A stretch of DNA of 64,000 nucleotides from an uncultured Phycisphaerales bacterium (lineage in GTDB: Bacteria; Planctomycetota; Phycisphaerae; Tepidisphaerales; Tepidisphaeraceae). The DNA lies in the NCBI GenBank assembly GCA_963758525.1, contig CAVWVQ010000002.1, forward strand, positions 96,001 through 160,000. The letters run 5' to 3'. A program made the translations under genes and the position numbers. The notes below the pieces were generated by a model. That model was not told the DNA's origin. It ran no database searches and worked only from the letters and a program-made list of their open reading frames with translations. Shown here one piece after another: positions 6,004 to 63,818 of this stretch. Each line of letters starts with the position of its first letter. The stretch's first letter is position 1.

Positions 6004-6024
6004 TCCTGCGACACTCGAAACGAA

Positions 6025-6167
6025 GGGTGTAACTTTTATTTGTGGCGATTGCAGATTTTGCGATCGTAGGGCGGGATTCATCCCGCCGTTTTCTCAGCCG
6101 GCCAACAAATCGGCGGGATGAATCCCGCCCTACTCGGAGCCGATCGCCACTTTCGAGCGCCACACCC
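6025..6167. mobile_element. 143-bp MITE containing a REP doublet, copy 1
   Basis: Identical to 17103..17245; bipartite terminal inverted repeat GGGTGT-N11-GTGGCGAT; 8-bp direct repeat GAAACGAA at 6017-6024 and 6168-6175; internal GTAGGGCGGGATTCATCCCGCCG and its inverse at 6066-6088 and 6111-6133. Confidence 0.9.
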
Positions 6168-6283
6168 GAAACGAAAGCGCCAGCACCGCACCGCTTCCCT
6201 GAACGCTTCCTCTGGTTTATCCTCATGTTGTAACGATTCGGTTTCGAGCAACCAGCAATCCCCCCGGCGAAGGAGCAACAATC

Positions 6284-7135
6284 ATGGCGATTTCCATCGG
6301 CGTTAACGCGTGGGTCTGGCAGGCCCCTTTCACCACCAATGATCTTGGCCTGCTCGACAAAGCGGCGAAAATGGGCTTCACCAGTTTTGAGATCGGACTT
6401 GAAGACCAATCACTCATCGATCCGCAAAAGCTCAAGGACAAACTGCAGGCGACCAACCTCAAGCTGGTCGTCTGCGGCGCGTTCGGACCGACACGCGACC
6501 TGACGCACGAAGATCCGCAGTACCGCCAGGAGAGCCTGGACTACATGGCCAATGGCTTCAAGTTTTGCCAGGCGGCTGGCACCGCGATCTGGGCTGGGCC
6601 GAGCTATTCATCCGTTGGCAAGCGCCGTCAGATCTCGGCCGAGCAGAAGAAGAAGGAATGGGATCTCGCCGCGACCGGCTTGCGAAAGGCCGCGAAGATC
6701 GCGGCCGATCACGGGGTGAAGATCGCGCTGGAGCCGCTCAATCGTTTTGAAACGGATCTGGTCAACACTTCCGAGCAGGTCGTCCGGCTCATCGACGACA
6801 TCGGCGAAAAGAACGTCGGCGTCCATCTCGACACATTCCACATGAACATCGAGGAGCTCGACAGCGGCGCCGCCATCCGCCACGCCGGCGACAAGTTGCT
6901 CCACTTCCACACCTGCGAAAACGACCGCGGCGCGCCCGGGTCGGGACGCAATATCGACTGGGATAATGTCGCGCAGGCGCTGAAGGACGTGAAATATAAC
7001 GGCAACGCCGTCATCGAGTCATTTACGCCCGCCTGCTCCATCGCCGGCGCGGCGGCGATCTGGCGTCCGCTCGCCAAGTCACAAGACGCGCTGGCCAGCG
7101 AGGGCCTCGCATATTTGAAAAAGCTTCTGCATTAA
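6284..7135 (+). CDS. Sugar phosphate isomerase/epimerase (D-tagatose/D-psicose 3-epimerase family)
   Basis: LEPLNRFET, HLDTFHMNIEE, HFHTCENDRGAPGSG, VIESF metal-binding motifs; RBS AAGGAG. Confidence 0.88.
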   Translation: MAISIGVNAWVWQAPFTTNDLGLLDKAAKMGFTSFEIGLEDQSLIDPQKLKDKLQATNLKLVVCGAFGPTRDLTHEDPQYRQESLDYMANGFKFCQAAGTAIWAGPSYSSVGKRRQISAEQKKKEWDLAATGLRKAAKIAADHGVKIALEPLNRFETDLVNTSEQVVRLIDDIGEKNVGVHLDTFHMNIEELDSGAAIRHAGDKLLHFHTCENDRGAPGSGRNIDWDNVAQALKDVKYNGNAVIESFTPACSIAGAAAIWRPLAKSQDALASEGLAYLKKLLH

Positions 7136-17061: not shown

Positions 17062-17102
17062 CCGCCGGTGAAATCCCAGCCTAAGACGGACCCGAAAGGG
17101 TC

Positions 17103-17245
17103 GGGTGTAACTTTTATTTGTGGCGATTGCAGATTTTGCGATCGTAGGGCGGGATTCATCCCGCCGTTTTCTCAGCCGGCCAACAAATCGGCGGGATGAA
17201 TCCCGCCCTACTCGGAGCCGATCGCCACTTTCGAGCGCCACACCC
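17103..17245. mobile_element. 143-bp MITE containing a REP doublet, copy 2
   Basis: Identical to 6025..6167; 8-bp direct repeat AAAGGGTC at 17095-17102 and 17246-17253. Confidence 0.9.
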
Positions 17246-17311
17246 AAAGGGTCTTTTTTTTCGACCTGCCTTTGGACTGCCGCCCCAACGCGGGTATCGT
17301 CACGGCGCTGC

Positions 17312-21422: not shown

Positions 21423-21444
21423 CGCGGCTATCTTATCATCAGGG

Positions 21445-21672
21445 CAACGAGGCACGGAGGTAGGAAGGCATGGGAGCAGGAAGGCACGGAGGCACGAAGG
21501 CACAAAGGCACGAAGGGTGAGGAAGGAAGAGACGGCCGATGAGAAAAAATAACTCTCTACAACATCCCCTTCCTTCCCTTCGTGCCTCCGTGCCTGCGTG
21601 CCTTCCTACCTCCGTGCCTGCGTGCCTGCGTGCCTCCGTGCCTTCCTTCCTGCCTTCCTCCCTTCCTCCCTT
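21445..21672. repeat. Octamer tandem repeats in inverted arrangement (GGCACGGA / GTGCCTCC)
   Basis: GGCACGGAGGCACGAAGGCACAAAGGCACG on the left, GTGCCTCCGTGCCTGCGTGCCT on the right, between divergent genes. Confidence 0.8.
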
Positions 21673-21727
21673 CACTTGACGACGACGGCGCGTGCCGCGA
21701 CGATCCGCGAGAATCGAGCATTTATTT

Positions 21728-22485: not shown

Positions 22486-22521
22486 GGATAACGAGTGCTG
22501 CGCACGCCGATCCAGAGCCCC

Positions 22522-22597
22522 CCCGTCCCTCCGTCCCTCCGTCCCTCCGTCCCTTCGTCCCTCCGTCCCTCTCTCCCTTCGTCCCCTCCTCCCTCCC
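22522..22597. repeat. Octamer tandem repeat (CCGTCCCT)n
   Basis: About six copies immediately downstream of the aroF stop codon. Confidence 0.85.
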
Positions 22598-23653
22598 CTA
22601 CACTTCCCGATCCACCGCGATCGCAATCCTTCGAATCGCCGTCATCATCGCGGCAAACTGTTGCGGCGTGATCGACTGAGCGCCGTCGGTCAACGCATGC
22701 TCCGGATCGTTATGCACCTCGATGATCAGCCCGTCGGCGCCGGCGGCCACCGCGGCGCGGCACATGGAGTCAACCAGATGGCTCTTCCCGGTTCCCTGGC
22801 TGGGATCGACGATTACCGGCAGATGACTCACGCGATGCAGTTCCGGCACTGCAGCCAGCGCCAGCGTGTTGCGGACATAATCTTCGAACGTGCGGATGCC
22901 ACGCTCGCAGAGCATCACGTTGGAGTTCCCCTTGGCCATGATGTACTCGGCGGCGAGAAGGAATTCTTCCAGCGTCGCGCTCATCCCGCGCTTGAGCAGC
23001 ACCGGCTTTGACTGCTCGCCGACGGCGTTCAGCAAGTTGAAATTCTGCATGTTGCGGGCCCCCACCTGCAGCACGTCGGCATATTCCGCCACGAGTTTCA
23101 CCTGCTCCACCGCCATCACTTCCGTCACCACCGCCAGCCCCGTCTCTTCCCGCGCCAGGGCGAGCAGCTTGAGCCCTTCCTCGGCCAGCCCCTGAAACGA
23201 ATACGGGTTTGTCCGCGGCTTGAACGCCCCGCCACGCAACCCGACCGCGCCGGCTTCCTTCACCGCATGCGCGATCTCCAGCAGTTGCGTCTTGCTCTCC
23301 ACGCTGCACGGCCCGGCGATGATCCCGAGCTTCTTCCCGCCCGCGGAAGGCGCCTCCGTCGCCTGCACATCTTTGCCTTTCTGCGGCGGCGTGACGAAGA
23401 ACGGCACCACCGATCGTTCTTTCTTCACTTCCATCGAAGCCATTTTATACGGCGCGAGAATTGGCACGACTTTCTCCACTCCTTCCACGCTTTCCAGCAC
23501 TGTGCGGTCCTTGAAGCGGTCGTTTCCAATCACCGCCACAACGGTCCTCTCGGTTCCGACGATCACGTGATCCTTCAGGCCCATTTCACGAACCAGCTTC
23601 ACCACATGGTCGATCTGACTCTTGTTCGATCCGGATTTCATGACGACGATCAT
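22598..23653 (-). CDS. aroF: 3-deoxy-7-phosphoheptulonate (DAHP) synthase, class I-beta with N-terminal regulatory domain
   Basis: MIVVMK N-domain, [49 protein letters not shown]. Confidence 0.95.
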
Positions 23654-31108: not shown

Positions 31109-31188
31109 CGCAAACCTCCCCCCCGGTTTAGCCTGTGCTTCTCGTTGGAATACGCGCTTCGCTGCGCGTCTCGGGTAACCTGCGGCTA

Positions 31189-31352
31189 AAAGGCGGTTTC
31201 AGAACCTGTTTAGCCGCGCCGCGCAGCGAAGCGCGTCCAAGAGCGCGTATTGACAGATTGCGTCAAACTCGCAGAAAACGCCGCTGGACACGCTCCGCTG
31301 CGCGTCGCGGCTAAACAGGTAACACACAACTTAAGGTTCTGAAACGGGCTCT
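31189..31352. mobile_element. MITE-like palindromic element, family 2, copy 1
   Basis: Outer inverted repeat GTTTCAGAACC / GGTTCTGAAAC; inner 35-bp inverted repeat 31205-31239 / 31285-31319 starting CCTGTTTAGCCGC; related copy at 37584. Confidence 0.7.
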
Positions 31353-35033: not shown

Positions 35034-35178
35034 TCAGGGTTCAGGGTTCAGGGTTCAGGGTTCAGGAAAATGCGGTGCGATCACTCGCGTCTCTAAGCGT
35101 TGCGGCGCATCATCCAGGCGATACCGCTCCTACCCCCTCCCTGAACCCTGAACCCTGAACCCTGACACCCTGAACCCT
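35034..35178. repeat. Heptamer tandem repeats in inverted arrangement (TCAGGGT / ACCCTGA)
   Basis: About 4.5 copies on each side of a roughly 70-bp spacer, between convergent genes. Confidence 0.88.
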
Positions 35179-55674: not shown

Positions 55675-55932
55675 TCAGGTGCCCTCGGCAACGACGATTA
55701 CGCGCGAGTGCTCCGGCAGGGTGACGCGAGGATCGACGAGGCGGATCACCCCATTTTCAACGATGCCCGGCAGGGCCAGAGGGTGCCGCGTCGATTGGCG
55801 CAAGTGGTGTTCGACGGGCGTGGGAACAGCATCCGATGGAAGTTGAGGCGGCGGAAGAGGGGGCTCGGCAGCGATGGTCTCGTCAAGCACTCGCCGCGAG
55901 GCGCTCCGCGTATCGGGTTCTATACTATGCAT
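55675..55932 (-). CDS. Putative antitoxin (DUF104/AF2212-like C-terminal domain)
   Basis: ALPGIVENGVIRLVDPRVTLPEHSRVIV; 12 bp downstream of the toxin-like gene. Confidence 0.5.
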   Translation of the reverse strand: MHSIEPDTRSASRRVLDETIAAEPPLPPPQLPSDAVPTPVEHHLRQSTRHPLALPGIVENGVIRLVDPRVTLPEHSRVIVVAEGT

Positions 55933-55944
55933 CGCAGAATCCCT

Positions 55945-56202
55945 TCAATAGGCGGTAATCACGAAAATCAGAGTCTGTTCCAATTCGGCAAACCCATTGG
56001 GGACATCATCCTCTTCACGATCATACCGCCAGATAACCCATATCCGACGGCCTGAAGGCGTCGCCGCATACATGATGAAGGAACCGTCGCGACATTCCTG
56101 GAGACTGAAAACGCTTTGAAACGAAGCCTCGACTTCCTCGGCCGAAAGTGCGTGGGCACCGATCTTCGCGAGATTCCGGTCGATCCATTTGAATCGCCGC
56201 AA
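55945..56202 (-). CDS. BrnT-like toxin
   Basis: FKWIDRNLAKIGAHALSAEEVEASF, TPSGRRIWVIW, IFVITAY pattern. Confidence 0.65.
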   Translation of the reverse strand: MRRFKWIDRNLAKIGAHALSAEEVEASFQSVFSLQECRDGSFIMYAATPSGRRIWVIWRYDREEDDVPNGFAELEQTLIFVITAY

Positions 56203-62687: not shown

Positions 62688-63725
62688 ATGCGCATTCTCA
62701 GCGTTGTCACCCGCAACTACTACGGCCAGCCTCAGGCGCTGGAGCCGATGTTTCTTGAGTTCACGCAGCCGTTGCTGGAAATGGGGCATGTCGTCGAGCA
62801 TTTCGATCACGTGCTGACCTGCGCACAGGTCGGGCCCGACGAATGCGCCGCTCGACTTGTCGACACCATCCGCCAGCGCGGGTACGACCTGGTCCTGTAT
62901 CAGACCGGCGGGCGTGATTTCATCAACCGCGGCGCATTCATCGACGCGGGACGCCTGGCGCCGATTGTGGGGTGGAACAGCGATGACGATTGGCAATGGG
63001 AAAGCTACACCAAGCTGATCGCCCCGCTCTTCACCTACGCGATCACGACCTACCCGCACATTTACCACGGCGCTCGCCGCGAGCATCGGAACCTGCTGCT
63101 GAGTCAATGGGGATGCCTGGAAACATACGCTCAGTTTGACCGCGAGAAGGATCTGGAGTTCACCTTCGTCGGCCAAGTCTATCGGAGCCGGGTGGCGGAA
63201 CTGCGGGCACTGAGAAAAGAGGCGTCCCTCCGCGTCTTCGGACTCGGCGCGCTGCGAGTGACGATCCCGCCGATGAACAATCGCCTGATCCGCAAGTACG
63301 TCACGAAGATAGCGCCCGCGACCAACCGGGCGCTGGCATTTCCCCAGGTGCATGAGATCTGGAACCGCAGCAGGATTTCGTACACGCCGCTCGGCGCCAG
63401 CACCGATCCGCGGATGCTTCAGATCAAGGGACGCGTTTTTCAGATGGGACTCTCCGGCACGCTGATGCTCTGTCAGGCATCGGAAAATCTCGATCCGTAT
63501 TACACCGCCGGCAAGGAATACGTTGCGTTCCACGATCCGCGCGACTGCATCAACAAGGTCCGCTATTACCTCGCGCACGAATCCGAGCGCGCGTGGATCG
63601 CCGGCGCCTACGCCGCCAGAACGCGGGCCGAACATTTGTGGAGTCATCGATTCGCGGAAATCTTCCGGAAGATCGGGATCAGTGTCCCGCGTACCACGGG
63701 TTTCCAACCCGTGCTGGCGGCATAG
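62688..63725 (+). CDS. CgeB-like glycosyltransferase
   Basis: WNSDDDW, TFVGQ, QIKGRVFQM, KVRYYLAHESER, EHLWSHRF. Confidence 0.8.
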   Translation: MRILSVVTRNYYGQPQALEPMFLEFTQPLLEMGHVVEHFDHVLTCAQVGPDECAARLVDTIRQRGYDLVLYQTGGRDFINRGAFIDAGRLAPIVGWNSDDDWQWESYTKLIAPLFTYAITTYPHIYHGARREHRNLLLSQWGCLETYAQFDREKDLEFTFVGQVYRSRVAELRALRKEASLRVFGLGALRVTIPPMNNRLIRKYVTKIAPATNRALAFPQVHEIWNRSRISYTPLGASTDPRMLQIKGRVFQMGLSGTLMLCQASENLDPYYTAGKEYVAFHDPRDCINKVRYYLAHESERAWIAGAYAARTRAEHLWSHRFAEIFRKIGISVPRTTGFQPVLAA

Positions 63726-63818
63726 CAGAAAATGAAACTTCGCTTCTCTCTGGAAGCTTTAAAAACCAGATCTGTATTCCTCCTGATGCAGTTCGCACGG
63801 GTTGGAAACCCGTGGTAC
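63691..63818. repeat. REP doublet (REPIN-like, GTAC ends)
   Basis: GTACCACGGGTTTCCAACCCGTGC at 63691 and its exact inverse GCACGGGTTGGAAACCCGTGGTAC ending at 63818. Confidence 0.85.

Follow-up and report, generated by a model that had tools for sequence, protein, structure and literature searches.

A MITE with ISKra4-family ends carries a REP doublet to positions before predicted promoters in a Tepidisphaeraceae genome

Introduction

How REP doublets multiply is still debated, and RAYT is the assumed mover. The locus described here puts the matter in a particular form. Comparison within the window (the whole 64,000-nt stretch analysed) yields two identical 143-mers, at 6025-6167 and 17103-17245, each with an inverted GTAG REP pair enclosed by terminal inverted repeats and each bordered by its own perfect 8-bp target duplication (GAAACGAA and AAAGGGTC). 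Where did the enclosing ends come from, what kind of enzyme spread the copies, and is the doublet itself the moving unit? The initial annotation had read the element as a REPIN spreading inside a MITE shell, with a DDE transposase of probable IS256-family type behind the shell.

Results

Structure of the element

The identity of the two copies and their flanks were re-checked and stand as first annotated; so do the bipartite ends (GGGTGT-N11-GTGGCGAT on both, 16/25 identical to each other) and the inverted REP pair inside, now located at 6066-6133. The features in the window are listed below, offsets being counted outward from the end of the element.

6017..6024, + strand: left 8-bp target duplication of copy 1, repeated at 6168-6175
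6025..6049, + strand: 25-bp end that corresponds to IRR, the right end of the parent ISKra4-family insertion sequence, 24/25 to loci L123 and L118; agreement ends at base 25
6050..6065, + strand: 16-bp linker with no detectable IS homology (shuffle test not significant, 280/2000)
6066..6133, no strand: inverted GTAG REP doublet, 22 + 24 + 22 bp, with arms at 6066-6087 and 6112-6133 and a 24-bp spacer between; the same 22-mer lies upstream of a RAYT in genome G031
6134..6142, + strand: 9-bp linker; no clear IS match in an alignment judged by eye
6143..6167, - strand: 25-bp promoter-facing end that corresponds to IRL, the left end of the parent, 23/25 to L123
6168..6175, + strand: right 8-bp target duplication of copy 1
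6195..6223, + strand: predicted sigma-70-like promoter (weighted score) ahead of the gene at 6284-7135, its -35 at offset 28
6284-7135: gene after copy 1, sugar epimerase-like (label below cut-off)
17095..17102, + strand: left 8-bp target duplication of copy 2
17103..17245, + strand: copy 2, identical to copy 1
17246..17253, + strand: right 8-bp target duplication of copy 2
17272..17300, + strand: predicted sigma-70-like promoter ahead of a WecA/MraY-like gene, its -35 at offset 27
55710..55717, - strand: empty target site; a contig of soil run X2 joins the element to this flank, and a -35-like box would be at offset 27

Short, non-coding and bounded by terminal inverted repeats, the element has the make-up of a MITE, and its folding as a whole gives z = -7.5 against 200 shuffles. 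An Rfam scan of the element returned hairpin miRNA models only, all far below their cut-offs. A short T run after the first REP hairpin fits a terminator pattern, so an insulating effect of the predicted hairpin is possible.

Other palindromic or inverted tandem repeat families, with 7- or 8-base units or REP-like doublets, are present in intergenic parts of the window at 2357-2481, 21443-21675 and 22512-22602, and further such intergenic families lie at 31152-31320, 35034-35165 and 63691-63818.

Copies in the source genome

The source genome (G000; 6.47 Mb in 6 contigs, 90.9% complete) contains 68 full-length copies at 97% identity or more, 45 of them identical, with 35 on one strand and 33 on the other—a copy number far beyond chance. 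The 67 gap-free copies show 23 substitutions, corresponding to 22 distinct changes. Of the 68 copies, 52 have perfect target duplications, 10 have duplications with a single mismatch and six are unclear, so that the possibility that copies elsewhere would lack them can be set aside; the 8-bp size seen in the window holds for 40 of the perfect pairs and is not the only one, the other 12 being of 9 bp. The perfect 8-mer duplications listed are all mutually different (39/39), and no target consensus was found inside the duplications of the 68 copies. Duplication pairs carry 10 mismatches where 2.5 are expected from the divergence of the element interior (P = 2e-4; about fourfold more diverged), and the true age of the copies may therefore exceed what their near-identity implies; gene conversion, imprecise duplication or selection acting on the interior could also account for the surplus of mismatches.

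Contigs of two soil runs (X1 and X2), representing related strains, join the identical 143-mer to flanks that are empty in G000, each of these two polymorphic sites resting on one junction at low depth; empty sites of this kind are what the initial annotation had suggested seeking. One is C3:3827039, and the other, at 55710-55717 in the window, falls within the end of the second of two 85-codon ORFs on the - strand. These adjacent ORFs (55675-55932 and 55945-56202) are toxin-antitoxin-like by size and arrangement and are not annotated. A separate 101-bp copy at C3:3379074-3379174 of G000 has its doublet collapsed to a single palindrome and is flanked by a perfect 8-bp duplication.

Origin of the ends

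A scan with the left-end pattern recovered this end from another Tepidisphaeraceae genome, where a transposase carries it at the 3' end (L099). The insertion sequence in question, here called the parent, is about 1,430 bp long; its two reading frames meet at a slippery-looking run. ISKra4 (NF033572, E = 1.2e-54) is by far the best NCBIfam family for its transposase, with a score of 186 bits that lies below the cut-off of 205 for the 373-aa part scanned, the N-terminal frame not being included; a candidate DDE triad and C/D(2)H residues are seen in the parent protein P0001 by eye against the published description. Across 110 related loci the parent IRL matches the right end of the MITE and the IRR its left end, the best matches of each (23/25 and 24/25) both being in L123, and IS homology to the element past base 25 is not significant. 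Parent loci have 8- or 9-bp duplications wherever any are seen. Judged by its sequence, then, the shell is the two ends of an ISKra4-family insertion sequence, and the element has the 18-39-bp ends with terminal C and the 8/9-bp duplications of that family. ISKra4, also termed p-MULT 4, belongs with its sister family IS256 to the Mutator superfamily, and the duplication size reported for p-MULT elements is 8/9 bp (PMC3942029). The expectation of a DDE transposase is supported by a parent with matching ends and duplications, and only the family changes, from IS256 to ISKra4: the parent scores 23 bits on the IS256 model NF033543, and an IS256 partner was rejected, there being no PF00872 match in G000.

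The insertion sequence with matching ends, which the initial annotation had proposed to look for, thus exists in other Tepidisphaeraceae and was not found in G000. The parent clade is present in 23 of 141 family genomes; in G000, at 90.9% completeness, the best tblastn match is 26% and none reaches E <= 1e-40. When runs X1-X3 were compared with L123, X1 and X3 yielded transposase-like pieces that are short, diverged and not assignable to this organism. G000 does have ISKra4-like elements: IS-A in two copies that differ at 1 of 1,498 bases, IS-B, and one more on C4. IS-A begins GGGTGT, makes 8- and 9-bp duplications and matches the MITE ends at 17/25 and 13/25. With no parent-clade copy found in G000 and the IS-A end match this weak, the enzyme behind the 68 copies is one that we infer and have not found.

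In parent loci, for example L107 and L123, the sequence directly inside the left end includes a conserved extended -10-like motif that the MITE lacks and that may form a promoter in the circle junction.

Reuse of the shell in relatives

The left-end pattern occurs in 20 of the 141 family genomes and 13 of 76 genera, G000 included. Outside G000 there are 83 matches, of which 72 were examined; 46 are complete short elements, distributed over 12 genomes, and the other 26 are IS ends, contig-truncated or decayed elements. Duplications with at most one mismatch border 33 of the 46. A palindromic repeat of one of five other types (classed by eye) lies inside 39 of them, in 11 of the 12 genomes; six elements, all in G034, have no hairpin, and one (L273, in G155) is a 57-bp nearly empty shell. 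The shell-bearing genomes are mutually related, and these element counts need not equal the number of independent captures. Four cargo types were counted across 14 genomes, the G085 type being left out, and are dispersed repeats in their carrier hosts, with 218 matches in G135, 170 in G155, 537 in G111 and 11 in G005; a G084 variant of one type gave no matches with the pattern used.

No empty shell was found in G000. At C1:251285 and C3:4147842 another host palindrome (CCCTCTCC type) follows an ISKra4-type end. The same REP doublet is present in G000 in a second shell-like flank with inverted ends beginning TAGTGG (about 13 older copies, for example C3:60787, C3:4582305 and C4:5779) and in a third beginning TAAGTAC (about five copies, including C1:81608 and C4:114206).

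The REP doublet and RAYT genes

The 22-bp REP has 372 matches in G000 at three or fewer mismatches, and the 68 copies account for 136 of these. A further 88 inverted REP pairs lie elsewhere, 23 with a recognisable older shell and 65 as shell-less doublets with varied spacers; a tally with and without the shell is what the initial annotation had called for. The inner doublet resembles a REPIN in being an inverted, hairpin-forming GTAG REP pair that is extragenic and also occurs free, and departs from one in that the doublet is not itself the moving unit, the unit of the 68 copies being shell plus doublet with duplications.

In G031 a frameshifted RAYT (127 bits, cut-off 80) has upstream of it an array that contains the exact 22-mer, and in G022 variant doublets flank a RAYT (176 bits) on both sides. 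The 65 shell-less doublets and these neighbours dispose of the concern that the palindrome might never occur alone or near a RAYT, and the RAYT flanked by this REP that had been anticipated exists in these two relatives and not in G000. There, the single RAYT above the cut-off (L105, C5:81001-82400, NF047646 188 bits; missed by PF01797) looks intact and is flanked on both sides by its own doublets of a different GTAG REP. The REP of the element was found within 700 bp of none of the 38 NF047646 hits in G000, except one adjoining a MITE copy, and flanks none of the 23 Y1 hits.

Terminal inverted repeats also enclose multi-copy Y1 (HUH) transposase genes in G000 (C1:315999-316775 with about 13 related copies, and C3:2875990-2876787); these genes resemble TIRtrons (PMC3733652), and many are 85-99% identical to each other.

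Insertion upstream of predicted promoters

Outward from the IRL-type end, the flanks of the copies are enriched for T-T-G at offsets 27-29 and have T-A-rich columns at 50-55, with no such enrichment on the opposite, IRR-type flank. A sigma-70-like -35 starts at offset 25-30 in 43 of the 68 copies on the IRL-type side, in none on the other, and at 65 of 5,000 random intergenic positions (1.3%); these calls are motif matches under an author-made weighted sigma-70 score, on which 25 of the 68 copies do not score. A stricter built-in promoter scan returned no sites at copy 1. Because this offset range was picked after the profile had been seen, separate sets were checked. The same range gives 23/47 for parent IRL ends against 2/67 for IRR ends and 15/46 for the shell elements of other genomes; at offsets 23-31 a -35 is scored in 8 of 23 older shelled copies against 1 of 130 sides of shell-less doublets, and both strain-polymorphic sites score one at offset 27-28. 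By the pattern in the flanks, insertion of the element is oriented and keeps a constant spacing to the predicted promoter that follows, and that of the parent insertion sequence likewise.

Copies with 8-bp duplications peak at offset 27 (18/31) and those with 9-bp duplications at offset 28 (6/8); duplication length thus tracks offset, which suggests a constant distance of 18 bp between the near cut and the -35 box. The box is 26-27 bases from the element end and 18 from the outer edge of the duplication, outside the 13-17 bp published for ISLre2/TnGBS and some ISKra4 elements, for which contact with RNA polymerase was proposed (PMC3942029); the spacing here is about 10 bp longer if the count in that paper includes the duplication, and nearly the same if not. 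Four named planctomycete elements in its Table S1 have no promoter junctions (0/19, 0/15, 0/5 and 0/2).

With a simple author-made gene caller, the next predicted gene reads away from the IRL-type end in 59 of the 68 copies, and no predicted gene contains a copy (0/68). Carried doublets are in a divergent gene context in 27/68 cases versus 8/65 for shell-less doublets (P = 4e-4), and in a convergent one in 3/68 versus 17/65 (P = 5e-4).

The resident elements IS-A and IS-B (C3:3320260-3321757, C5:72113-73610 and C3:1464719-1466184) have a promoter-like -35 at offset 26-28 on the right-end side, at 27-28 in both copies of IS-A. A further element, L315, is an ISNCY/IS1202-like 1.5-kb insertion sequence (NF033594, 381 bits) with 16-17-bp duplications and copies at C3:2149724-2151250, C3:3356228-3357754 and C3:4237641-4239167. 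All three have a promoter-like -35 almost directly after the duplication, at offsets 17-19, and two of them are 27-28 bp from a MITE end. The IS1202 preprint reports Xer-site targeting only for the 5-bp group; set against that source, promoter targeting by the ISTde1-like group (L315) may be undescribed.

Discussion

The element is very probably a non-autonomous MITE in which 25-bp ISKra4-family ends surround a host REP doublet, likely moved in trans by a DDE transposase and oriented before promoters. The observations that point this way are the homology of the ends, the 8/9-bp duplications, the copy number, the polymorphism between strains, the fixed spacing to motifs of promoter type, the identity of the REP and the reuse of the shell for other repeats; from them we infer the mover enzyme, a circular intermediate, polymerase contact and a Pack-MULE-like capture of a host segment between the ends. 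A transposase of the parent clade would bind the two asymmetric ends, and the element would be copied through a circular form, as is reported for the family (PMC3942029). It would insert with the IRL-type end toward the promoter, about 27 bp upstream of the -35 box, presumably in contact with RNA polymerase. The REP doublet is the cargo of the 68 copies and would have entered either by capture between the ends or by insertion, at a later stage, into an empty MITE. The 68 copies can be explained without RAYT, and the element has every testable feature of a MITE apart from a cognate partner in the same genome. The reading first proposed, a REPIN spreading inside a MITE shell, is therefore supported, with oriented insertion before promoters and reuse of the shell as additions to it.

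The order of events is the point on which the strongest alternative differs. The shell might first have spread empty as a small MITE, with REP doublets, attracted by the inverted repeats, inserted later and repeatedly by their own machinery, the composite then moving as a MITE. These genomes often have palindromes nested in palindromes, insertion of REPINs into or beside other REPINs is described (PMC3116915), the same doublet occupies two other shells in G000, and L273 is a nearly empty shell; set against this, G000 yielded no empty shell, the linkers differ among cargo lineages and have no IS homology beyond base 25, and L273 retains a piece of the cargo edge and looks like a deletion product. 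We consider this sequence of events possible, if somewhat doubtful. It is unlikely that the recent copies of the same element were moved by the co-resident IS-A instead of a cognate parent: IS-A is in G000, recently active, and shares the GGGTGT start, the duplication sizes and the offset of the -35 in both copies, but its end match is far weaker than the 23-24/25 of the parent clade, and its ends are nearly symmetric with promoters on the IRR side, whereas the MITE, like the parent clade, strictly has its IRL-type end at the promoter.

Two further explanations fare much worse. Survival of harmless insertions, in place of targeting, would fit the location of all 68 copies outside predicted genes, yet it would yield neither a one-sided two-base peak nor a link between duplication length and offset, and one polymorphic site at the expected offset falls within the end of an 85-codon ORF; we regard it as very improbable. 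Hardly any credence can be given to a long REPIN moved by RAYT with the shell as incidental flank, despite the association of this REP with RAYT in relatives and the intact-looking RAYT of G000: that gene is flanked by a different REP, promoter spacing is confined to shelled copies (43/68 vs 1/130), and the IS end homology and the target duplications contradict it.

Returning to the ISKra4-ended MITE, a broader proposal can be advanced tentatively, as somewhat short of probable. ISKra4 ends would repeatedly capture host hairpins in a bacterial, Pack-MULE-like manner, and REPs would multiply by DDE-driven, RAYT-independent movement that shifts them from gene ends to a fixed position before promoters, at a spacing that exceeds the published one by about a helical turn. 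The cargo hairpin may assist short elements in joining their ends, or may shield the promoter from read-through.

MITEs, REPINs and promoter targeting by ISKra4 elements are each known, and their combination appears to be the new part. The element shares the 18-39-bp ends with terminal C and the 8/9-bp duplications of ISKra4/p-MULT 4 insertion sequences (Guerillot et al. 2014, PMC3942029), and with some members of that family it shares promoter-directed insertion; the first ten bases of the planctomycete ISSiac5 (1,429 bp; Table S1 of that paper) are those of the MITE left end. Unlike these insertion sequences it is non-autonomous, and its -35 box is 26-27 bases off, against a published 13-17 whose counting basis is unstated. 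The word MITE is absent from the main text of that paper. With REPINs (Bertels and Rainey 2011, PMC3116915; Di Nocera et al. 2013, PMC3733652, which covers GTAG/CGTC REPs) it has in common an inverted, GTAG-tagged hairpin pair that is extragenic and RAYT-adjacent, but the 68 copies move inside IS ends with duplications and land upstream of promoters. Bacterial MITEs such as MITEAba12 (PMC6382973) and BrickBuilt (PMC4596501) are likewise short and non-coding, with IS-shared ends and duplications, and BrickBuilt also has an internal repeat, a minisatellite; in the present case the cargo is a separate dispersed REP family, the same shell has lineage-specific cargo, and insertion is promoter-spaced. 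Plant Pack-MULEs, as treated in the discussion of PMC3942029, have non-autonomous Mutator-superfamily ends around captured host DNA and a preference for gene 5' ends, whereas the elements here are bacterial, about 60-300 bp long and filled with palindromic repeats in place of gene fragments; the likeness is anatomical, and capture would be a proposed step. PMC5771137, bioRxiv 2022.12.17.520857 and bioRxiv 2024.10.14.618302 were also compared. No report of a REP doublet carried in a MITE shell was found in the literature covered, subscription papers and ISfinder lying outside that coverage.

The shell likely gives REP repeats a second route of spreading, without their usual enzyme. Since 136 of the 372 REP matches are in copies made by another enzyme class, REPIN statistics can be distorted by such hitchhiking, which can skew REPIN counts, estimates of duplication rate and position statistics. 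The 68 natural insertion sites mark predicted promoters in a poorly studied phylum, and a 143-bp donor with a known partner insertion sequence would be a simple substrate for studying how Mutator-type transposases find promoters.
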